Shown here: positions 1 to 60,111 of the stretch, in pieces
How the letters are laid out: the number at the start of each line of letters is the position of its first letter
Position numbering within the stretch: position 1 is the stretch's first letter
Origin: Cyanidioschyzon merolae
Taxonomy: Eukaryota
Assembly: GCA_000091205.1 (NCBI GenBank)
Contig: AP006485.2
Length of the DNA stretch: 64,000 nucleotides
Direction: 5' to 3' (one strand)
Notes under the pieces: generated by a model
Told to the model about the DNA's origin: nothing
Seen by the model: only the letters and a program-made list of their open reading frames with translations
The model's database searches: none
Program-made: the position numbers and the translations under genes

Positions 1-1266
1 TTCGCACGTCCCAAAAACAAATGGTTTCATCGAACGATCCCGAGGCCAAAACATTACCCTGGGGATTAAAGTTGCAGCAGAAGACATAATTGGAGTGTCC
101 TTCGAAACGGTGCACGGCGACGCCCCGCTCCACATCCCAGAGCCGCAGCGTGCGATCATCGGACGCGGAGGCGAGCCAGCGCGACAGGCTCGCCGAACGA
201 CTCGCCCCGCTGCCAGCTGCTGCTGCTGCGGACGCTGCACCAGCCCAGGCTACGTCGCTGATGCCTTGCGCGTGTCCCTCGAGAACGCCCACTAGTCTGC
301 CATCTGCGACTGACCATAGCCGAACCGTCTTGTCTGCAGAAGAAGACGCCAACAGACGACCGTCAGGAGAGAACTTCACAGAGGAGATGGCCTTTCGGTG
401 ACCCTCGAGCGTGTACTGCAACACGAACTGCAAGTCAGGCGAGGTCTCCTGCTCTTTGCGAGCGCTTCCAGCAAACTCGTGCACAGGCGCACAGGTGCCC
501 TCACAGCACTCTGGTCCTCGCTCTACGCCGCTGGACATGATGCGGATTCTTGCAGTCACCGCCCCAGCTCACGGTTGCTTTCGAGAGCACCCAACCGTCT
601 CAATCAGAACGCTACCGCGCTACAGGCTGCTGCTCGGCCGGTGAACCGAAGCACCGCACCAGAAGACGTACAGCAGCAGCAGCAGCAGCAACTACTATTA
701 TCGACTACCAACCAATCAACCAACCACCAGCTGCTGGGCGTCCACAGTTCTTCGACACAGCGCGGACCTGTGGCGCTTGTTAAATAAAGTCCCTGTCAAC
801 GTTAGAAGCGTTCCCCTCGAAAGCCGCCTCTGGAATGATATGCAACGACGTCGTGTTGCCGTCGTATGGCGCCCTGTGAGGCGCGCACGGATATGTGTGC
901 AACGCATTGATCCGTGACGCGCACGCACGCACGCATGCGTGCGTGTATGCGTGCGTGCGCGATGTTGCCGCGTTGCCGCGTTGCCGCCGCCGCCGTCGTT
1001 GTCGGTGCCACGCGATGTGTGACACCGATCCGGGTAGCCCGTTCGGCATGCAGCCGATGGCGAATACGCCGTCGTTGTCTACCCCGCGAGCACCCAATGC
1101 TCTATGTGATCAGTGACACGATAAATGCGCTACGACCCTGACAGGTGTATATATCTATCGATGGACAGGCGCCTCTTGGTCTTGTTTGACCGACTTTGTG
1201 CTATCGGCTGCAGCTTCTCGTTGTGCACTTCGAGCATCAGAGGGTGCCTCACAACGTAGGTTCGCC

Positions 1267-11507: not shown

Positions 11508-12680
11508 TTGAGAGTGTGGGCGTTGTCTGATGCAATGCAGACCGGGGGTTTCCCCAGCCCTAGTGTGCAACGCGTTCCAAAAGACGTGTTCTGCTTGATG
11601 GATACTGAGCGTTTTGATCAGCGGCCGACTTGTTGCATCGTACGCGAGTCCCGATGCCAGAGCGGAGGCAGCCTTTTCCGCCAGCCTGTGTCAATGGAGA
11701 TGTACATTCGCGGGCTCGCGTCTGCTGACCTTGATTCCAGTTTAGTGCGCTTTCGGCATGAGTCTGTGAGCAATTCATCACCGGACGAGATCAAGTGTTT
11801 CCCCTGCCTATCCAGCGCTGCGAGTGATTGCGTGCGCATGTTGCCTCGCGATAGAACAATTGGCAACTTGAAGAACGTCTGCTTCGAGCTTGCGACATGG
11901 AAGGGAAACGCAAGAATCGGGGCCTGTACATATGAATGGGTTTTCATTTTGATTACTGTACGAAGCCTTGCACGAGGGCATCGCTCATCTTCATCATGAT
12001 AGCAATCACGTAACGTTTCCCAGTGACACAGCGTCTAAGGAGCCACTCGGAAAAATCGGTCTAGCATCGTAGAACTAGGCGTGAATCCGTAAATCCTAAC
12101 TGCCGCACTTGGATTGTCAAGGCTGTCTGTGTATAAAAATAAGGTCCGAACATCAACGAAAAGCAGGTGTAGAACGAGCAGTCCCGTTTTCTCGTTTTAC
12201 CGGACCCGCGCGCATGGCGGATGTGCTTCTGCAGCGTGTTTGCGTTCGGTGCCGTTGGCGCGCGTTGCGAGGCTTGCGTTCTTATTTTATGAAAGCTGGT
12301 GGTTCTCAGGTTATTGTGGATACGTTTGTGGTGGCTTGTCTCGGTCTTGCGGGAGCCATTATTGGTCTGGAGTACGCTTTGGACGGTGACGAAGCCGCCT
12401 ACAGCGAACTCACCAACGGCAAGGACGAGGTTGCCGGCGATGCCGTTCGGGCACACGTACGTGCAACGTGGCGCAGCGCTGCACTTTCGCGGGTAGCGCA
12501 AGTGCCTGGCGGGACCTGAAACTGGTTTTTGACGAGCACGTCGCACCGGAGCTACCCAAGATGTTCCGTTTGATCGGACAGCAGTGGCTGACCCCGAAAA
12601 CTGCCTGGTTGTGGTCCGTGGTAAGCAGCTGGTGGGCAATCGCCTGAAAGGATGCGTGGTTCGTGCAGCGAGGCAAAAGC

Positions 12681-12803
12681 TGCGGCAGGTGAGACTCGAA
12701 CTCACGACCTTAGGATAGCTTTCTTGGGCTCGTGTTATGAGACCTACGCGCTGTGGCACTGAAACTGAACTGGACAAAGTTTAACCAACTGCGCTACTGC
12801 CGC
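12681..12803 (-). tRNA. tRNA-Met (anticodon CAU, elongator-like) interrupted by two introns: about 30 nt in the D-loop and 19 nt at 37/38
   Basis: The reverse complement reads GCGGCAG-TA-GCGC-AGTTGGTTA[aactttgtccagttcagtttcagtgccaca]GCGC-G-TAGGT-CTCATA[acacgagcccaagaaagct]A-TCCTA-AGGTC-GTGAG-TTCGAGT-CTCAC-CTGCCGC-A. The 7-bp acceptor stem is fully paired (GCGGCAG/CTGCCGC). An A-box (TAGCGCAGTTGG) and B-box (GAGTTCGAGTCTC) are present. The anticodon stem TAGGT/TCCTA carries the usual 31-39 non-Watson-Crick pair of elongator tRNA-Met, and the anticodon loop is CTCATAA. With both insertions removed the mature length is 74 nt. Confidence 0.7.
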
Positions 12804-14750
12804 TGATGGGAAATGCTTGCGATAATCTAGATATAAAGCCCATTGCGCCCAGGTTCGTTGCACCGACGGCGCGTGCGTTTGTTCGTGCTCGATTCTGTGC
12901 GCTAGGTTTCACCAACCGTTTCAGCATGATGTCCCTTGTATGGTGCAACTTGATTGAATTCGCACCACTTTGGACAGGTTCGGCCTCGGTGCGCACCTTG
13001 TTGCGCAGATGGGATGCTTGCTTCATGACGTCAGTGCTATGATCCCCTGTCGTGAGGTACAGATGCGCATGAAGCGATAGCGCCCTTTTGCGGGTGCACG
13101 GCTGGTGTGCCGGAATGTGCACTCATCTGGTCAGCGTAAATTTATCATGCGGCATGCTTGCACCCAAGTCGACGTATACACGGACGAGCACGACCTTGCG
13201 TCAGTTATTTTTGGGGTACGGAGTAGGGCGCTGCATGATCGTGTAGACGAACCGGGGGATTCCCGATTGCGCCATGGTTATCGGTATCCGCGAAAGCGTT
13301 CATCATTCTGCACGGGACCGCTGCGTTTCAGGAGCCAATGCCGATAACTTCTTTTCGGAATTAGGGTTTGTTCGTCCAATTTTCCTGGTGCCGAGCGCCT
13401 GCCGTGTGCGCCCACTAGGTTGCCACTAGCGTCGATATGGTTATCGCATGGCAACGGAGCGGCTTTTCCATACCATGATTGAAGAAAGCTCGAGGCATCA
13501 GCCTGCGTGTACACGCCCGCGGGCTCGCGGAACGCGTCTCTCACGGACGACTCGGATATGCACTGGCACCGGAGCTGCTGTATTTGCAGCTGCATACCAA
13601 ATCGATGCTCCTTCGCCTACGAGCTGGTGCGTCACATAAAAAGCAAACGAAATTCCTAGGTACCGTCATATCTTCGGGACGGCACAGCGTTGCAGGTTGG
13701 TCGAGCAGTCGCCCAAACTTTGGTTTGAGGCGACGCGGGTCGACGGACAACATAATGGTAACGCCCGACATGCGGCGGTTCCTGGAGGGTTTCGCCGTTT
13801 TCCTGGACGGCGTAACAGGGAGCACTCGTGATTCAAGCTGACACCGAGACAGCGGCCCCAGGCGGTCACTTTTAGACGTCCATGGTAAGTGCCATAAAAC
13901 AGTGCGAGGCTCTCACGCAGATCCGTGTCGATGATGCTACCAGATACGTTTGCTCATCAGCTTGGCCGCTCTTTCCGACGTTTCCGTGGCCGTATCCACC
14001 TATTCGATGTCCATTGGCAAGCACATTTGGTCATAGAGCACTCGCTAGCAAACAGCATAGCACAGCACTGCAGATCCTCGGCAGTTCCTGGTGCACCGCT
14101 CACACCGGTGACGCATCGCGAGTGCGCACCGCATCCTGTGCCTCGTGCTGAACTAGGTCCGTTTGATCGCATGGCATTCGCGAAAGACGCATGCAGATGG
14201 TGTGTATCGCGTTTGGCAGAGGGCTATGTTATTCAAACCAGTGAACCTGAAACAGTCTGTCATTGAGATGTTTATCGACAAACGCGTGGATGCGGCATCC
14301 TATCGTTCGCGGAGCGTCCTGTCATAGTGCCAGCGAAGAGTCGGAACTCTTACGCGAGCAGAGCTGCATTCGTTTTATTTTGCAAGCAGCCCCGGACCGT
14401 GCAGCTGCTTGCATTCTTCTGCAGATTTACATCCATCGAGGAGCGTCAAATCGTTCCGGCTGAAGCGCACAGAAACGTCGCGCGAAAGCATGTATCCGAG
14501 GATGTCGGGTGACTCCAACGGCGAACAACATCCCAGCCATTGCCGCCTACGATACGATTTGGGTAAGGCGCTTATGGAAACAGGTCGGGCCGATGCAGCC
14601 CATTTATGCACAGGCACTTGCTCTTCGTTGTATTGACCTATAGTGCAGTCCACTGCTATTGCAATGTTCATGTACACATGCTCTAGATTATCTACCGAGA
14701 TCATGCGGGTAGGCCGCAGCGTAGTCTCCAGAAAGCTCATGGAAACAGTT

Positions 14751-15875
14751 TCATGGATGAATAGTATCTTTGAATTCAAAGAACGAGTCATGCATGCGAA
14801 TGAAAGAGTACTCCTCGCATGACCCACAACACCAGTATAAATTAGGTTCTTTGTGAAAGATAGCGAACCCGGCGTGCATAAAACCTCGGAAAAACTCATC
14901 CAATTCTGGGATAGAGGCGAAACCCGCGTGCACTTCGATAAGGACTTGATTCACGTGCCGCAGCGCGTGCCAGGTTCTCAAGGCATATTGCTCTTCAGAG
15001 CTGAGTTCACGTTGGCTCCGTCCTTGGCGAAGGAGCTTGTCGGCTGCCCGGAACGCTCCCAAGAAAGAGGTGAACTCACCACCCTCGATATCGATCTTGA
15101 GCACCTCGACGACGTTTGGCAGCTCCAGGTGACCCAATCCAGACATGATCTCCGCCAGCGAATTGTTGCTCTCAGCCGGGCCAAGCGGCCGGCGAAAAAA
15201 ACGAACGCGTTCCAGAAAGCTCTCGGAGTGCATCGCAGATGGTGGCGATGATGTTGGGTCAAAGACGAAAAAATCGCAGTCCGGCAAGCGTTCATGAAGC
15301 TTCGTTTCGAAACTGAAATCGTCGTTGCTACCAAAACTGTAAACAATGCAGCGATACGGGAGCCTGAGCTGCTCACGAAACAGCCGTCCCCGGTTCAGGA
15401 TAGCAGGTGGGTCGCACACCCATTTGCCACCGTCTCCGTTGTTACCGATCCGTTCCTCTAAGGTACAGCCGATATCCGGTTCCCAGTTATTGTAGAAAAA
15501 AACCGACGGGTTTGGTTCGAGGGTAACGGTCTGGCGCTTTCGCTGACGTTGTGACCGAATCCTCCGTTGGGCCCAGAGCGCGTCCGACTCGCACCAGAAG
15601 CCGAGCGACTCTTTCAGTGCTCGCGTGTCCTTCGAAGTCACTGGTAGGGTCCGGTCCCAAATCTCCGTCAGGGTTTTCGCGTTGCGCAAAGAGCTCCCAC
15701 GACGAAGAGCCCTCGACACGGAGCGAACGCAGCTGTCATCCACGGCGGGAAGATCCGCGCGCTGGACACCACTAGAGCGTCCGTTGAGAACACTAGTAGC
15801 GCGGTATATTACGATAAGAGCATAAATAAGAAAAGTCAAAGCCCCTGAAGCGATGCACGGTTTTCGCCACGTCAT
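14751..15875 (-). CDS. Type II membrane protein with FkbM-family (Methyltransf_21) methyltransferase-like domain
   Basis: The ORF runs 14751-16115, but the first about 80 codons overlap the 3' end of the Fanzor-like gene on the same strand and use a non-ATG start, so I begin the call at the internal Met (MTWRKPCIASGALTFLIYALIVIY, a signal-anchor). The domain carries CIVYSFGSNDDFSFE ... NVVEVLKIDIEGGEFTSFLGAF ... VNQVLIEVHAG, which fits the FkbM/Methyltransf_21 pattern (LKiDvEGaE ... iE.H). Confidence 0.5.
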   Translation of the reverse strand: MTWRKPCIASGALTFLIYALIVIYRATSVLNGRSSGVQRADLPAVDDSCVRSVSRALRRGSSLRNAKTLTEIWDRTLPVTSKDTRALKESLGFWCESDALWAQRRIRSQRQRKRQTVTLEPNPSVFFYNNWEPDIGCTLEERIGNNGDGGKWVCDPPAILNRGRLFREQLRLPYRCIVYSFGSNDDFSFETKLHERLPDCDFFVFDPTSSPPSAMHSESFLERVRFFRRPLGPAESNNSLAEIMSGLGHLELPNVVEVLKIDIEGGEFTSFLGAFRAADKLLRQGRSQRELSSEEQYALRTWHALRHVNQVLIEVHAGFASIPELDEFFRGFMHAGFAIFHKEPNLYWCCGSCEEYSFIRMHDSFFEFKDTIHP

Positions 15876-16024: not shown

Positions 16025-18149
16025 TCATTTTCTTCTCATATAATTCCACTTTGAGAGGTCGCCCCACAGGTTCTCTCGTGTCGAATCTGGAGGTCTTTTC
16101 TCCAGCACCGCACATCTCCTGATATTGATAGCGACATTAAAGTCTCGGTTCACAAACTCCATGCGTTTCTTGCCATCTTTGGTTGTACTTACTAATACAA
16201 GTAGCCCACGAACGTTCGCCCTCCTTTCCATTTGCTCCTCCGTCAGCGGTCCGTACTTTGCTATTTCGTCGGGGCTCCTCTGGCACTTTTCCATCTCGAT
16301 CCTTTGAAGTGTACAACACAGTTCATGGTGTGTATACGATGTTCGGAACTCATCTACAGGTATTGTAACTAACCGGTCTGCACACCCCTTGTACGTTCTT
16401 GTCGTTGGAGCTGGTGTACACTCTTTTTCAGACGCCTAGCGCCCTGCTCCGTATGCTACTACCAGCCTTTGACTTTCATCCTCTTTGAAGGCACTCAGCT
16501 GATTGAAAAAGTTCGCGAACGCACACTGCTTGCCAACGTATAGATTCATACGCAATCGAGACCACCGGGGCTTTGTATACTCTTTCCACAGTGCCTCCCA
16601 ATGACCAACGCGAACTTTCATGAACTCCCGAAAAGCTTGAAAGTCGGCTCCGCGGCTCGTCACCTCGCCCAAAGCTTCCAGGTGCTCTTTCATTCCTGCA
16701 TTCCATGTCTCGATTTCCTTCCACGCATTCTTTATACCGGATTCTCGATAGTATCTCGCTCTCGAGAACCTCAAAAGACGCATGTCTTTCTGAATGAAGT
16801 TGCCGTCTGGACCATCTTCCGCACGCCTGGGTACAGCGATGGCTGTGACATTCGTATTCCCAGGGTCCGCGCCCACGACAAAGTCGTTATACTTCCTTTT
16901 CTGTGTGGCACAATCCGCCTCCTTCTCATCTTCATACCTCGTCACGTCAACGACAACGTCGTCATCCTGCACTTCCTGTGTCGCAGGATCCGTCTCTTTG
17001 TTTTCTTCATGCTTCGTCATGGGCGAAGCCGAAGGCTCGATAGGACGATACGCCCTCAAGCGCTTGCAGTCTACACAAATGGATACTCCATCGGTTTCGA
17101 TCATCCCCGTGAATACCCTCTGCTTGCTAATTTTGAGACGTTTGAAACTGAAGATATTCTTCCAGTACGTCTCCCGGTTTTCACCGGAGAATTCCTCCCT
17201 GCTGGCATTGAACTCGGGACTGATCTACTTCATGATGCCGTAGACGACTCTGGAGCCGATATAAACAAAATGGGGCTGTATGTTCCATAACGGGATGACG
17301 TAGAAGCGCTTCACCATTAGGAAAGCCCTCGGTCTCTCGCGCTCTTCATTTTTTCCTCACTCAGCTTCATCTCCGTCTTGCGTTCGAGTTTTCGGTCCAG
17401 AAACACGAAATACCGCAGAATGAGGCGATAGTGTCTTTCCATATCTTTTTTCAACTCTGGTACCTTTTCTGCTGGATTCGCCAGCCCAAAAACTGCATGG
17501 TGCTCTTGTATTGCCGCACGGATTACAGAAGCTTCATTCGTGCTCCTGCGTGGCGCCTTCTTGTCACCAAATTCGACCTCATCTTCATGCTTACGATCAT
17601 TCGTGATGCCTTGAAAATCGCACATTTTCCATCGCGAGATAGACCCGGGTAGAGTGCAAACACGGCGCGTATCATGAAACGTTCGAGGTTCACTGTCAAA
17701 TGGTGTTTCAGGTCCGTGATTTACTTCATCGCCCCGTATATGTAGATATTTCCGTCACCGCTGTATCGATTACCCTCGAAGGGGAATTCCACGAAGATTT
17801 CGTGGAGAGCATGCACTAGCTCATTTTCCCTCCGCATACCCCCTGTACCAAGCATCAGTTGACGAATAAACGTCTTGTCGAAAAACTCGTCCGAAACCTC
17901 GACTCTTTCCATGTGCGTCACATCGCGATGCATCGCCCTCACCAAATGCATTAGCCCTGACGATGCGTTTATAATACTTTTGGAGTACGAATCGACACAT
18001 GGTCTCTGATAGCGTCTCGCAAATTTTGCTTGTACTGATCCTTGGTATGTCAAAGAAGACCAGCTTTCACCACCATCTCGTCGCACAGGTGTCTTTTTCG
18101 CCGCCTTCGACGTTGGACCTCCCCTTTCGGTCCTTTTTCTTCTCTTCAT
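16025..18149 (-). mobile_element. TnpB/Fanzor-like RuvC nuclease gene (copy 2, near full-length, about 700 codons). It is split into ORFs 17721-18149, 17317-17625 and 16436-17104 + 16025-16294; the last two share a frame and are separated by a single TAG.
   Basis: Going N to C on the minus strand, the coding sequence shows: a basic NLS-like N-terminus (MKRRKRTERGGPTSKAAKKTPVRR); a RuvC-I-like [21 protein letters not shown] ('G-x-D-P-G', the Fanzor-typical variant of TnpB GIDLG) with Asp at about 16853; the Fanzor/TnpB bridge-helix pattern [26 protein letters not shown] (compare R..L.r.h.K.an.r.d..hK); an in-frame TAG at 16436-16438; RTYKGCADRLVTIPVDEFRTSYTHHELCC (compare TnpB LeYKAee.G..V..VdP.yTSq.C..C); and a RuvC-III-like MEFVNRDFNVAINIRRC with Asp at about 16143. 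The frame changes twice upstream (near 17105-17316 and 17626-17720), by frameshifts or short introns. The gene sits between AT-rich flanks. Confidence 0.65.
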
Positions 18150-30332: not shown

Positions 30333-32096
30333 CTAAAGAATTGAATCTTGATCATTTTGCAGCTGTAGCTGCCGTTGCTGCTTCAGGCGACGAGCTTCCT
30401 GTCGAGCCTGGCGACGTAGTTGTTCAGATCGCATTCCCGGGCGCCGGCTCTTTCTCGAAACGCTGGTTCCCGAGGAAAGCGCCAGCTCATTACTGTTTGC
30501 CACCAGCGGGCTAGCATCCCTGCTAGTCGACTGCGCGCTCCCCATAAACGCTAACCCAAACAAATCCCGGAGGAACGGGTTGCCCTCAAGCTGGACAGTC
30601 AGTGCTCGCCCACATGCTCGACGCAGAGCATCTAACTGCCGTCGTTGCGCCCAAGTCCTGGCTTGCAGACGTTCCTGCGCTCGTCCGCGGCGAAGCGAAA
30701 GCGTCTCTATTCCAGAACGTTGCGTTGCAGCGCGTTCAACCAGACGCAGCAGTGAGCGGTTGCGCTTCCCAAGCCGATAGCGCTGGGCACCAACCGTGAA
30801 TGCGACGCGTTCCAGAGCCCTGTCAAGCTTGTCGATACCCGCGGAAGTTATCGTCGACGACGACGACGAAGAAGAAGAAGAAGAAGAAGAAGATGATGAT
30901 GATGACGAAGAACAAGGTGGTGAATCCCGGCATTCCGAAGATGCTGACGATTCGCCCGCCTGGAAAGAGCCCTCGGCTGCATCGACATGGAGACGCGCTT
31001 CTCGATCTGCCTCAGCGAATGCAGCCACAGCATCAACATCATCGTCTGTGTGATCGTTGTCCATATGATGAGCAGGTATATTGGATCCAAATACCCCGGA
31101 ATCGGTTCCTTGAGAGTGCTCCAACAACAACGCTATGGCTTCTGTTGCCGCTAAACAGGTCTCCTTCGGTGTGGATGTGCTTTTCCAGTCACCTTGGACG
31201 GCGTGCAACTCGAGCCACTGGCGTAACGGACGCGCTTTTAACTGGGTCCGTATCACCTCCGATGGACAGGCACTCGCTAACAGTGACCATCCCCGAATAG
31301 CGGCCGCTACAACCTGGTCGAACGCGCTCGACTCGCCAAGACGCTGTTTCGTTTCACCAGTTGACAGGTCGCTCGGCGACGTATCCTGCCCGAACCAGCT
31401 TTCTAAACGCTGCATCAGCGCTACCAATGCAACTGAATCAGATGAAGCCAAAAAACGCAACAGACTCACCGTCTCTATGACACAGACTTGCCACTGAACC
31501 CACTCGGGGTCCGGTCGAGGCGCACTGCGTTCACTCGCTTCGAGCAAGACCTGCTCGAAACGTGTTCGCTGCAGGAGCGCCTCAACTGTTTCAGTGTCAG
31601 TGGTGCTTGCCACAAGCGTCAATACGCTTGTACCAATGAGTCGACAGACTTCGCGTTTCTCCCAGAGCGACCCTCGTCGCAGCGGGCCTCGCAAGGCCTG
31701 CTCCACGAGCTGCTCACAGCGTGTCTCCGACCAGAGGTCGGTACGGAGTCCCAGGTCCGTCAGCTGCCGTGCCCTATGGAGCGCTGCTTCTCGTAGCCAG
31801 CGCCGTTTGTCCGTTAGACTGTCAATGCACTCGTCTAGGGCTTCAGACTCGCTCGTCAGCACGCAGCCTCGGTCGAGGATGCTTACCAGCATGTTTTCAG
31901 AGGTGCCAGTGCCCCTGAGAGACGACGCCGAGGCGTTGCTCGAATAGGAGGCGTTCCAGGAGTCACTTGAGCAGTCCAGTGGTGTTTCCTCGCCATTCGT
32001 GTCGTTTGGAGGCGTCATGGTCTCTGTTTTGTCCGAATGCCGTCGACGTCGTTGGTCGGTCTCCTTTCGGTTCCGGGCTTGCCGCCGTGGAGCCAT
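30333..32096 (-). CDS. Hypothetical protein with an internal poly-Ser(18) tract
   Basis: The 587-aa ORF is much longer than any overlapping frame. The codon-repeat region 30841-30910 (GAC/GAA/GAT on plus) encodes SSSSSSSSSSSSSSSSSS on minus. The N- and C-terminal ends are basic and Arg/Gln-rich. No family assigned. Confidence 0.45.
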   Translation of the reverse strand: MAPRRQARNRKETDQRRRRHSDKTETMTPPNDTNGEETPLDCSSDSWNASYSSNASASSLRGTGTSENMLVSILDRGCVLTSESEALDECIDSLTDKRRWLREAALHRARQLTDLGLRTDLWSETRCEQLVEQALRGPLRRGSLWEKREVCRLIGTSVLTLVASTTDTETVEALLQRTRFEQVLLEASERSAPRPDPEWVQWQVCVIETVSLLRFLASSDSVALVALMQRLESWFGQDTSPSDLSTGETKQRLGESSAFDQVVAAAIRGWSLLASACPSEVIRTQLKARPLRQWLELHAVQGDWKSTSTPKETCLAATEAIALLLEHSQGTDSGVFGSNIPAHHMDNDHTDDDVDAVAAFAEADREARLHVDAAEGSFQAGESSASSECRDSPPCSSSSSSSSSSSSSSSSSSSTITSAGIDKLDRALERVAFTVGAQRYRLGKRNRSLLRLVERAATQRSGIETLSLRRGRAQERLQARTWAQRRQLDALRRACGRALTVQLEGNPFLRDLFGLAFMGSAQSTSRDASPLVANSNELALSSGTSVSRKSRRPGMRSEQLRRQARQEARRLKQQRQLQLQNDQDSIL

Positions 32097-40347: not shown

Positions 40348-41721
40348 GGGGTCGGCACGAGCTCTCCAGGTTCTGCGACTCGGGTGCGGGAGGTCGTCAC
40401 AGGTGCAGCCGCTTTGCGCCCACGTAGCGCTCTGCTGCAAAGTTTCTATGCATCTGGGCGAAGCGACGCATTTATAAAGCCGTTCACGCAAGCCGAAGCA
40501 AATAACAAGTTCGTCAGCAGAACAAGTGAGATCAACGCCTCGTCGATTCCTCTACCGCTACTGCTGTTACTGCAACATGCATGGCAATTGCTATGATAGG
40601 TGCTATGATGACAGCGATGTCAGAACAGAATAGAACTACTTCTCCAAGTTGGATGTATAATCTAAAGTGTGGGTGCCTTCCCAATGCCATCAATGGAAGC
40701 GTTTGTGTGATTTTTATGCGACTACTTCTTTTTTTGCTCAGTGTTCTCTGGCTTTGAATACGCCGGTCTCTCCTTTCCATCCAGTTCTGTTGTCAGTGGT
40801 CCAGGAATATTGACGAGAGCGTCTTAGTTCCGATTTCCGAGTTTTCGGTCGCTGTCGACGCTTTTCATGCACAGACGGAAGTTGCGATCTATGCTTCCCG
40901 TGCGATGTTCGCATTCAATGTAGACAGCTTCGGAGGGCATTTCGCAGCAGCGAAACTAGATTATGACCAGGTGTGCTCGTGTGTCCAACACACATTCTCT
41001 AGCGAGCGCCTTCTCGTCATGCTTGAAGGCTCGCCTCATCGCTCAGTACACGCTTTTGACCAGTACAGAAGACGCCTCTCAATACCGTCGTAAACTTGCG
41101 CTTCCGATGCCCGTACCTTTCGAGTATGTGCCTCCTATTGGCCATCCCTTCGTCGAGTGCTCTGTCCGCTGGACATGCAAGCGCACGCAGTACCGGTCGA
41201 TGTAGGATTTGTGGCACGTGATGTTGTCCAGGATGGAAAAAAGTATAGGTAGTGTAATCCAGGTCAGAGAAGCCGTTGGGAGATTTCCACCCGTTTTTCG
41301 TTTGAACTGGTGACGTATTCTCCACTTGAAGTGATCACAGCGACGACGCAAGTCGATCTCGGAATCCAAGGCCTCTTTCCGTACCAGCAAAACAAAAACG
41401 GGGAGTCCCTGACAGCATTCCCTGGGAAAGCGATCATGCTGCTATCGAATATTGTTGAATTGATTGGACCGAGTAGACCAGAATTCGTGTTTGGAACGGA
41501 ATCGATTTTTGAGCATGACAAGTTTAGTGAAATTCCGGGATAAGCTTGTAAACAAGTCGTCCGGGGTGAAGTCGAGTCTTCTTCCTGATCAGTGCGGCTG
41601 TGCGTGTTGCTGCGCGACTAGCTCCATTGAAACAGAAACATAGAAGACTTCAAGAGCATGTGATTTAAGCACGCTACACGTAAAGCGGATAGAAGCGTAG
41701 AGGCTCGTACGTAGGAATTGG

Positions 41722-58524: not shown

Positions 58525-60111
58525 ATGCGTTTGTCAAGGATCTCTCGTGCGGTGGCGTTTTGCCTGCTTCCTCTGTTATTCGCAGCTGCAGTTTTGGCTG
58601 CGAAGAGTGGAGCGTCGGCTTCAGTGTCGCTGAACGAGAAAACGTTCGATAAGCAGATCAACGCGCACCGCATAGCGTTGGTCAAGTTTATTGCCCCATG
58701 GTGTGGTCACTGCAAGCGAATGAAGGAAGACTGGGACGCAGCTGCGGTGGATTTGAGCGGACAGAAGGATCTTTTGGTTGCAGAGGTCGACGCAACCGTG
58801 GAAACCAAGTTACGTGATCGTTTCGAGATTCGAGGGTTTCCGACCATTAAACTATTCGTGAACGGCAAGCCGGTTGCCGACTATAACGGTGAACGCACCA
58901 AAGACGCGCTGGTCAACTTTGTTCGTCGGCAAATGACACCTCCCGTCGTGGTTGTGAACAGTTCCGCACAAGTCTCCGCGTTGAATGTGGATAAAGAGCG
59001 GGCTCGGGTGGTTGCCTATCTGCCAGAGACGCTCTCGGCAACAGAACGAGCAGCGCGGCTGACACAGCTCGAACAGGCAGCCCGAACTTTGCGCGAGCTC
59101 TTCCCAGACCTGATGTTTTACCAAACGAGTGACGTGGAGGCTGCCCACGCGCTCGGTGCAGACGCGCATCCAGCGCTCGCGAAGGATACGGCTGCTATCG
59201 TTGTGGCGCGGCCGCATACCGAGTCCGAGTCCGTTCAGGAGCGCGTGCATATTAAGGCATGGGATGCACCAGGTGCGGCAGGCACTCGACAGGACAAAAC
59301 AGAGGACACGACGGAGCCACTGCAGCAGTTCATTCGGCTGCATGCGGTGCCACTCGTTGGCGAGATCTCCCAGGCAACTGCAGAGTTGTACCAGGATATC
59401 GGGAACCCGTTGTTTATTATGTTCGACGATGCACCACACAAACCAGAGCAAAAGGGCGTGTCCATCATGAAGCAGATGGCGAAGAAGTATCGTTCGCGAA
59501 TCAGTTTCGTGCTGGCGGACGCGGAGAAACTTGCACGATTTCGCGAATACATCGGGTGTACGGACGGCAGGCGTTTTGCGATCCATGTGCTTGGCGAGGA
59601 TAGCAATTTCATTTACGACGGTGCAACCGACGAGGCGTCCATCGAAAAATTCATCTCGGATTATCTCGATGGTAAGCTGCAGCCGACGCTACGCTCCGAG
59701 GAGCCTCCAGCAGAGAACACGGGTCCCGTACAGGTTGTTGTAGGCAAAACCTGGGATCAAATCGTCATGGACCCGGAGAAAGACGTCTTTGTGGAACAGT
59801 ATGCTCCCTGGTGTGGACACTGTCGCAATCTGGAACCAGCATATGAAGAACTTGCACGCAAACTAGCACCAGTGAAAACCGTGGTCATCGCCAAGATGGA
59901 TGCGACGAAAAACGATGCGCCTGGCGAGTACAAAGCTCGCGGTTTCCCGACGCTGCTCTTCTTCCCAGCAGGTTCGACAAAAAAATCCATTCGATATGAG
60001 GGTGATCGTTCCGTTGCGGACATGCTTTCGTTCATCCAGAAACATGCGACGCACAAGTTCACGCTCCCGAGCAGCGCGGACTCGATAGAAACAGAAAAGG
60101 ACGAATTATAA
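58525..60111 (+). CDS. PDI: Protein disulfide isomerase (ER lumenal, two thioredoxin active sites, KDEL retrieval signal)
   Basis: N-terminal signal peptide (MRLSRISRAVAFCLLPLLFAAAVLAA). Two APWCGHC active-site boxes, one near residue 57 and one near residue 415. The C-terminus is ...ETEKDEL. Confidence 0.92.
   Translation: MRLSRISRAVAFCLLPLLFAAAVLAAKSGASASVSLNEKTFDKQINAHRIALVKFIAPWCGHCKRMKEDWDAAAVDLSGQKDLLVAEVDATVETKLRDRFEIRGFPTIKLFVNGKPVADYNGERTKDALVNFVRRQMTPPVVVVNSSAQVSALNVDKERARVVAYLPETLSATERAARLTQLEQAARTLRELFPDLMFYQTSDVEAAHALGADAHPALAKDTAAIVVARPHTESESVQERVHIKAWDAPGAAGTRQDKTEDTTEPLQQFIRLHAVPLVGEISQATAELYQDIGNPLFIMFDDAPHKPEQKGVSIMKQMAKKYRSRISFVLADAEKLARFREYIGCTDGRRFAIHVLGEDSNFIYDGATDEASIEKFISDYLDGKLQPTLRSEEPPAENTGPVQVVVGKTWDQIVMDPEKDVFVEQYAPWCGHCRNLEPAYEELARKLAPVKTVVIAKMDATKNDAPGEYKARGFPTLLFFPAGSTKKSIRYEGDRSVADMLSFIQKHATHKFTLPSSADSIETEKDEL

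Follow-up and report, generated by a model that had tools for sequence, protein, structure and literature searches.

Positions 12681-12803 of the window, the 64-kb stretch of DNA that was analyzed, very probably hold a functional nuclear gene for the elongator tRNA-Met(CAU) (eMet) of Cyanidioschyzon merolae 10D, divided into three exons by two introns that are predicted to be spliced out by proteins. The Rfam tRNA model RF00005 matches 12681..12803 on the minus strand over its full length (model positions 1-71), scoring 48.4 bits (the gathering threshold is 29) with E = 2.7e-7 over the whole window, and this is the only above-threshold Rfam match within the 64 kb. The E-value and the conservation described below together exclude a chance origin of the gene. 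In the cmscan alignment every stem is present, and the inserts amount to 32 nt at the D-loop column and 21 nt at the anticodon-loop column. Direct reading of the minus strand places a 30-nt insert after A21 of the D-loop and a 19-nt insert between A37 and A38. A first-pass annotation had described a 123-bp locus with insertions of about 30 nt in the D-loop and 19 nt at 37/38; both the extent of the locus and the insert lengths are borne out.

Removal of the two inserts in silico yields a 74-nt product, GCGGCAGUAGCGCAGUUGGUUAGCGCGUAGGUCUCAUAAUCCUAAGGUCGUGAGUUCGAGUCUCACCUGCCGCA. Folded without constraints, it adopts a cloverleaf as its minimum-free-energy structure (-27.1 kcal/mol). The stems of the cloverleaf are 7/4/5/5 bp long, and the CAU anticodon (window 12737-12739) is flanked by U33 and a purine at position 37. 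As read from the minus strand, the acceptor stem is GCGGCAG/CUGCCGC, the D-stem GCGC/GCGC, the anticodon arm UAGGU-CUCAUAA-UCCUA, the variable loop AGGUC and the T arm GUGAG-UUCGAGU-CUCAC, and the discriminator base is A. The earlier description of the stems, the anticodon and the discriminator as intact after removal of the insertions is thus correct. The 31:39 pair is U.U, as in an intronless eMet gene found on the metagenome contig L002. Eukaryotic initiator tRNAs are marked by A1:U72, an anticodon stem with three successive G:C pairs and no T54. As the present gene has G1:C72 and U54, and its anticodon stem (UAGGU/UCCUA) nowhere has three G:C pairs in a row, it encodes the elongator and not the initiator tRNA-Met, as had been proposed.

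Table 1. Features of the eMet locus and its neighbors. The precursor is numbered 1-123 on the minus strand, so that the window coordinate equals 12804 minus the index; a slash within a bulge marks the splice site.
Feature	Window coordinates	Strand	Description
TATA-like box TTTATATC	12830..12837	-	-34..-27 relative to tRNA position 1; probable upstream promoter for Pol III
Exon 1	12782..12803	-	tRNA 1-21: acceptor 5' strand, U8 A9, D-stem 5' strand, D-loop AGUUGGUUA
Helix H, exon strand (U17 G18 G19 U20)	12784..12787	-	pairs with intron bases 12754-12757
5' bulge of intron 1 motif (UA/A)	12781-12783	-	
Intron 1, 30 nt (AACUUUGUCCAGUUCAGUUUCAGUGCCACA)	12752..12781	-	between A21 and G22
Helix h', 3' strand (pre-tRNA bases 44-46)	12758..12760	-	pairs with 12778-12780 (bases 24-26)
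Helix H, intron strand (G C C A)	12754..12757	-	followed by 3' bulge CA/G (12751-12753)
Exon 2	12736..12751	-	tRNA 22-37: D-stem 3' strand, G26, anticodon stem 5' strand, loop C32 U33 C34 A35 U36 A37
Intron 2, 19 nt (ACACGAGCCCAAGAAAGCU)	12717..12735	-	canonical 37/38 position
Exon 3	12681..12716	-	tRNA 38-73: A38, anticodon stem 3' strand (U31.U39), variable loop AGGUC, T arm, acceptor 3' strand, discriminator A
T-run TTTT	12675..12678	-	starts 3 nt past the discriminator base (+3..+6); probable Pol III terminator
Methyltransferase beside the tRNA gene, 374-aa product	14751-15875	-	identical to BAM79085.1
Convergent protein-coding gene	12274-12650	+	its end lies some 30 nt away from the terminator of the tRNA gene

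ARAGORN calls no tRNA in the 64-kb window and none of the interrupted eMet genes at the orthologous loci. The same program does call the intronless eMet gene of L002, which serves as a positive control. Interrupted eMet genes are thus missed by ARAGORN but caught by the Rfam covariance model, in line with the earlier expectation that default scanners overlook genes of this form. No second tRNA was found in the window by the Rfam scan or by a scan for B-box motifs; the latter, directed at hidden or permuted tRNA genes, gave 5 matches against 3.7 expected, that is, no signal. The assignment to the Cyanidioschyzon lineage, which had been made from the letters of the sequence, is confirmed by the protein disulfide isomerase of the window (ORF 58525-60111), residue-identical to XP_005535381.1 / BAM79095.1 of C. 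merolae 10D, and multiple and ectopic tRNA introns are described for C. merolae in a published survey (PMC3728597). The locus is a clean positive control, in which a reader given only the sequence recognized a doubly interrupted tRNA gene and deduced its lineage.

Intact, syntenic 123-nt orthologues of the gene are present in four related genomes (L003-L005, L008 and L009). L003, L004 and L005 are metagenomic loci retrieved via the adjacent methyltransferase; their gene order, IFRD-GTPase-methyltransferase, is that of the window, at about 54% protein identity. L008 is a Logan contig; its methyltransferase groups with KAK4532559.1 of Cyanidiococcus yangmingshanensis. L009 represents a strain similar to C. 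merolae, with 96.2% identity across 4.9 kb. Rfam scoring covered L003-L005, where the tRNA gene reaches 48.4 bits with 32- and 21-nt insertions, the same as in the window; the eMet genes of L008 and L009 were located by sequence.

The exons and the introns of these genes have changed at very different rates. Between 10D and L003, 1 of 74 exon positions and 29 of 49 intron positions differ (Fisher p = 5e-14). The corresponding counts are 2/74 and 21/49 for 10D and L008 (p = 2e-8), 1/74 and 17/49 for L003 and L008 (p = 3e-7), and 0/74 and 2/49 for the closely similar pair 10D and L009 (p = 0.16). Exon 1 is the same in 10D, L003 and L009 and carries a single D-loop change, U16C, in L008; exon 2 is invariant among all orthologues; and exon 3 shows one change, U47C, in L003 and L008. 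The position and length of both introns (30 and 19 nt) are exactly unchanged among the intact orthologues, while the flanking coding DNA is about 67-70% identical between lineages at the nucleotide level. Although the comparative depth is small, at four distinct intact sequences, the conservation of intron position and length and a compensatory change, seen in at least three cyanidiophycean lineages, give sequence-level support to the predicted splice sites.

The search for further relatives produced some candidates that were discarded. L007, a Cyanidium caldarium sequence reached via its methyltransferase homologue, has neither synteny nor a tRNA and is not an orthologous locus. A DNA-pattern scan of metagenome contigs returned L001, which is described below, and L002 only. 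The collection scanned is incomplete, as L003-L005 and L009 hold exact matches to the pattern yet were not returned; it misses samples that are indexed on the protein side. L002 proved to be a false positive for an interrupted eMet gene: it is an intronless gene in front of which its own 5' end is partly duplicated in tandem. The gene (499-594, minus strand) comes from an unrelated organism. The duplicate directly before it repeats its first 23 nt (GCGGCAATAGCGCAGTTGGCAGC), and the gene sits in a tight cluster with a tRNA-Sec gene, a tRNA-Ser gene and two tRNA-Leu genes.

Both flanks of the gene carry conserved signals. The TATA-like box reads TTTATAAA at -35..-28 in L003-L005 and TTTATATG in L008, and is identical in L009. 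The T-run is kept in L003-L005, L008 and L009, with TTTTT at the same place in L003-L005 and L008. The first-pass annotation had counted the A and B boxes among the intact elements. An A-box-like sequence, TAGCGCAGTTGG, is indeed included in exon 1, and a B-box-like sequence, AGTTCGAGTCT, in the T arm of exon 3, but the likely promoter is the conserved TATA-like box and not these boxes. [quoted passage not shown] A scan for sigma-70 promoters and intrinsic terminators found nothing, which is irrelevant to a Pol III gene.

Intron 1 comprises bases 23-52 of the precursor and lies at the junction of the D-loop and the D-stem, between Sprinzl positions 21 and 22, a boundary that in 10D is sequence-degenerate with 20a/21. 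Its placement in the D-loop by the first-pass annotation holds for the region and is narrowed here to the loop/stem junction. At the 3' end of the intron, G47-C48-C49-A50 can form a 4-bp central helix H with U20-G19-G18-U17. The four pairs of helix H (U:A, G:C, G:C and U:G) are invariant in all sequences compared. Helix H is followed on the 5' strand by the bulge U21-A22/A23 and is flanked on the 3' strand by the bulge C51-A52/G53. The inner helix h' of 10D consists of A24:U46, C25:G45 and U26:A44; it is 3-5 bp long among the orthologues, with 5 bp in L003. The 26:44 pair is U:A in 10D and L001 and A:U in L003 and L008, a compensatory change of both sides. The outer helix h is absent (0 bp) in every orthologue because G53, which is G22 of the tRNA, doubles as the closing base of the D-stem. 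The motif of intron 1 is therefore of the relaxed HBh' type. The strict archaeal hBHBh' arrangement, with a 4-bp helix, two 3-nt bulges and helices of at least 2 bp on both sides, is found at neither intron.

When the explicit precursor structure is applied to the sequences, helix h' is paired in 100% of cells, and the overall pairing is 95.8% of cells; shifting the 3' partners by 1-3 columns lowers it to 28-45%. Among 20,000 shuffled introns, only 0.37% combine a 4-bp central helix with a flanking helix of 3 bp or more and have boundaries placed so that the product is the same (p = 0.0037). Loose bulge-helix-bulge (BHB)-like arrangements are frequent by chance, 18 of them occurring in the 123-nt sequence, and a BHB search in a single sequence was for this reason rejected as too permissive to be evidence by itself. 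Four loose BHB-like boundary pairs are kept in all three intact orthologues tested, and a cloverleaf results from only one of them, 22/53 (the precursor bases on either side of intron 1). The interior of the intron is substituted at 14 of 17 positions relative to L003, and its 3' end, GUGCCAC, is conserved. The D-loop motif has energies of -0.5, -2.8 and -0.9 kcal/mol in the three orthologues tested, against +5.1, +0.6 and +2.7 kcal/mol for the 37/38 motif, and is the more stable of the two by 3.4-5.6 kcal/mol in each of them. It is nevertheless weak beside the strict motifs of tRNA-Phe and tRNA-Ile, for which about -11 kcal/mol has been reported.

A real gene with other boundaries of the D-loop intron is an unlikely alternative to the assignment at 22/53, although the 10D sequence taken alone lends it some appeal. 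The boundary pair 20/49, which corresponds to a 28-nt intron and an 11-nt D-loop (AGUUGGUCACA), has a 4-bp helix H and a 5-bp helix h' in 10D, and 21/48 has 4 bp in both helices. In L003 and L008 these two pairs fall to 3 pairs in helix H, while 22/53 holds 4 with an h' of 3-5 bp, and both were rejected as not conserved. Furthermore, 20/49 leaves five bases between G19 and G22, beyond the usual range of D-loops. The pair 21/52 (Sprinzl 20a/21) yields an identical mature sequence in 10D, L003 and L009, and PlantRNA puts the D-loop introns of Chondrus at 20/21. In L008, where the last base of intron 1 is G and not A, the use of 21/52 would turn the conserved A21 into G, and this fixes the junction at Sprinzl 21/22. 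Comparison across lineages thus helps to pin down a boundary that is ambiguous in 10D.

Intron 2 (bases 69-87) has the same length in all orthologues and is substituted at 12 of 19 positions relative to L003. It forms two of the four central-helix pairs, C32:G(-3) and U33:A(-4), as well as C2:G13, and its motif energy is positive. In a single sequence this motif is no better than chance, as it is matched by 13% of shuffles. The trinucleotide AAG at -5..-3, which supplies the partners of C32 and U33, and the pair C2:G13 are kept in the intact copies; both helix H pairs are present in 10D, L003-L005, L008 and L009, and C32:G(-3) is lost in the broken L001 copy only. The intron shows the signals of canonical eukaryotic 37/38 introns: base 32 pairs with intron base -3 (the anticodon-intron pair), and three nucleotides bulge out at the 3' splice site. 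It therefore looks like a eukaryotic anticodon intron rather than an archaeal BHB intron, and among the motif types published it ranks with the relaxed ones, 'hBH / no H'. The check for BHB motifs at both insertion boundaries that had been advised thus gives a conserved, relaxed motif and not a strict one at intron 1, and two of the four central-helix pairs at intron 2.

A clearly broken copy of the gene is found in the related contig Ga0080006_1176537 (L001), which aligns to window 12500-14716 at 96.2% identity with clustered differences. From 13000 onward there is about 1 difference per 100 bp. The 100-bp bins from 12600 to 12999 contain 9, 8, 33 and 11 differences, and 54 of the 61 differences in this patch are specific to L001 when it is compared with 10D and L009. 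Within positions 1-500 of L001 (window 12500-13000), the patch is about 400 bp long, diverges by 15-33% and is centered on the eMet gene and its promoter. Mismatches occur at 2:71 and 3:70 of the acceptor stem and at 51:63 and 53:61 of the T-stem; G53:C61 is a universal tRNA pair. Changes are equally frequent in exons and introns (8/74 and 5/49), the TATA-like box is absent, and Rfam makes no call on this copy. Ordinary neutral decay cannot account for a patch of 15-33% divergence against a 1% background. The patch might stem from gene conversion, or from chimeric joining to an older paralogous copy during assembly. The methyltransferase has a paralogue, BAM82952.1, of about 97% identity on another 10D chromosome (1,282,939 bp), which indicates a recent segmental duplication that might have included a copy of the tRNA region.

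The broken copy and the silence of ARAGORN could be taken to mean that the window itself contains a dead tRNA-Met pseudogene, with the insertions as debris and no expression. This is highly improbable. The exons are perfect and near-invariant in a setting where the introns are scrambled and the flanking coding DNA has diverged as described, and the TATA box and the terminator are conserved. The truly decayed copy in L001 is different in each of these respects, with exons changing as often as introns, stems broken and the TATA box lost. In addition, no other tRNA is found in the window. It is still harder to believe that only the 37/38 intron is spliced and that the D-loop insert is retained in the mature tRNA as an expansion of the D-arm. 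The exactly conserved length of 30 nt would fit such an expansion, but the interior of the insert is not conserved, and the insert sequesters G18 and G19, which are needed for the tRNA elbow. In the RT-PCR of Soma et al., D-arm introns of other C. merolae tRNAs are removed (PMC3728597). A functional gene with two spliced introns remains the preferred reading.

On this basis, a pathway of maturation can be proposed for the eMet precursor. Pol III would start about 30 nt downstream of the TATA-like box and stop at the TTTT run. In the precursor, GCCA of intron 1 would pair with U17-G18-G19-U20 to form the 4-bp helix with bulges UA/A and CA/G and an inner helix of 3-5 bp (relaxed HBh'). The tRNA-splicing endonuclease (cmSen2/cmSen34, with or without cmSen54) would then cut both bulges, and a ligase would join A21 to G22. 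G18 and G19 form the elbow between the D-loop and the T-loop of tRNA. The loss of intron 1 would release these two bases for the elbow. The 19-nt intron would be removed next, in the eukaryotic manner, with C32:G(-3) and the 3-nt bulge at the 3' splice site as signals. Trimming of the ends and addition of CCA would complete the mature tRNA.

We infer the splicing of eMet, its order with the D-loop intron first, and the enzymes by analogy with other C. merolae tRNAs studied by Soma et al. (2013). Their RT-PCR for Asn, Phe, Ile and Gly is reported to show intron removal, with the 37/38 motif invariably the last to be processed (PMC3728597). The higher stability of the D-loop motif of eMet fits this rule. 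The mature-domain geometry required by a Sen54-type ruler presumably cannot form until intron 1 is gone, which is consistent with the proposal of two complexes by Soma et al. A more speculative and rather doubtful idea is that the D-loop intron serves as a checkpoint of maturation, which imposes an order on the processing, or the modification, of the only elongator tRNA-Met ahead of any recognition of the anticodon-loop intron. It is suggested by the exact maintenance of intron position and length despite randomized interiors and by the sequestration of G18 and G19 in intron 1. If this idea were right, the introns would not be neutral leftovers. Equally speculative is that the L001 patch might hint at turnover or gene conversion of an essential single-copy gene in natural populations.

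That C. merolae 10D has ectopic and multiple tRNA introns has been known since 2013. Soma et al. (2013, Sci Rep 3:2321; PMC3728597) searched its nuclear genome with SPLITS and SPLITSX. They list 43 nuclear tRNA genes and find introns in 27. The introns number 42 and measure 11-69 nt; D-loops hold 14 and position 37/38 holds 17, and nine genes have two introns (PMC3728597). The motifs described there range from strict hBHBh' to relaxed HBh', hBH and 'no H', and the eMet gene is listed in Figure 1 (PMC3728597). The text of Soma et al. aside, no explicit statement on the C. merolae eMet was found in the literature examined; non-canonical C. merolae introns are annotated in PlantRNA 2.0 (bioRxiv 10.1101/2021.12.21.473619). 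As a discovery, the gene adds little, since the set of 43 tRNA genes including eMet is catalogued in Soma et al. 2013 and in PlantRNA. What appears to be new, judged from sequence comparison and from the literature searched, where no such comparative result was found, is the conservation of the gene across Cyanidioschyzon- and Cyanidiococcus-like lineages and its broken, hyper-diverged copy in a metagenome.

The eMet gene belongs to the class of disrupted tRNA genes, as it has an intron outside 37/38, more than one intron, a relaxed BHB-type motif at each junction, and a TATA-like sequence with a T-stretch. Compared with the disrupted genes of the same genome in Soma et al., it shows nothing different in kind, although eMet is known here from its sequence and the RT-PCR covers Asn, Phe, Ile and Gly. 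Its closest counterpart there is tRNA-Phe(GAA), with a D-stem intron and a 37/38 intron (PMC3728597). [quoted passage not shown] The Chondrus D-loop introns adjoin position 21, and the genes are called pseudogenes or missed by tRNAscan-SE (PlantRNA 2.0). Chondrus, however, belongs to a distant red-algal class, and the comparison is with a description whose text leaves the loop of the second eMet intron unspecified.

The tRNA-eMet of the Guillardia theta nucleomorph, a genome derived from a red alga, has several non-canonical introns (Kawach et al. 2005, as cited in PMC4090602). It differs in having three introns, some of them extremely short and most without a BHB motif. Multiple introns, at the D-loop and other non-canonical sites and recognized through BHB motifs, are known from crenarchaeal tRNA genes (Marck and Grosjean 2003; Sugahara et al. 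2007-2009). Archaeal endonucleases consist of catalytic subunits only. Unlike the crenarchaeal genes, the C. merolae gene has eukaryotic eMet exons (U31.U39), a eukaryotic context, no outer helix and a eukaryote-like 37/38 intron. In plants and algae, a 37/38 intron of tRNA-eMet is widespread throughout the plant lineage and is the sole intron there (EMBO J 2026 review, PMC13578239). Intron 2 of the C. merolae gene shares with it the 37/38 site and the anticodon-intron pair.

The remaining observations concern the rest of the window. Its G+C content is 54.8%, and long uninterrupted ORFs encode the eukaryotic proteins Pex16, IFRD, a nucleolar-type GTPase and the protein disulfide isomerase, in keeping with nuclear DNA. 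An ORF of 238 aa on the minus strand (12061-12777), which overlaps the eMet gene, is probably spurious, as the codon periodicity of the conserved sequence downstream belongs to the convergent plus-strand gene. Compared with the single 172-aa ORF of L003, the window homologue of this convergent gene shifts its reading frame near 12495-12507; this could reflect a frameshift, a small intron or a divergent C-terminus. Sub-threshold Rfam matches at 919-960, 30868-30943 and 40827-40859 (mir-3149 on both strands, archaeal sR52 C/D snoRNA and CRISPR-DR56) lie far under their gathering scores (E 0.4-2.2) and are most likely due to chance. L009 differs from the window by about 1-4% over most of the 4.9 kb, and by 20-26 differences per 100 bp at 17000-17300.
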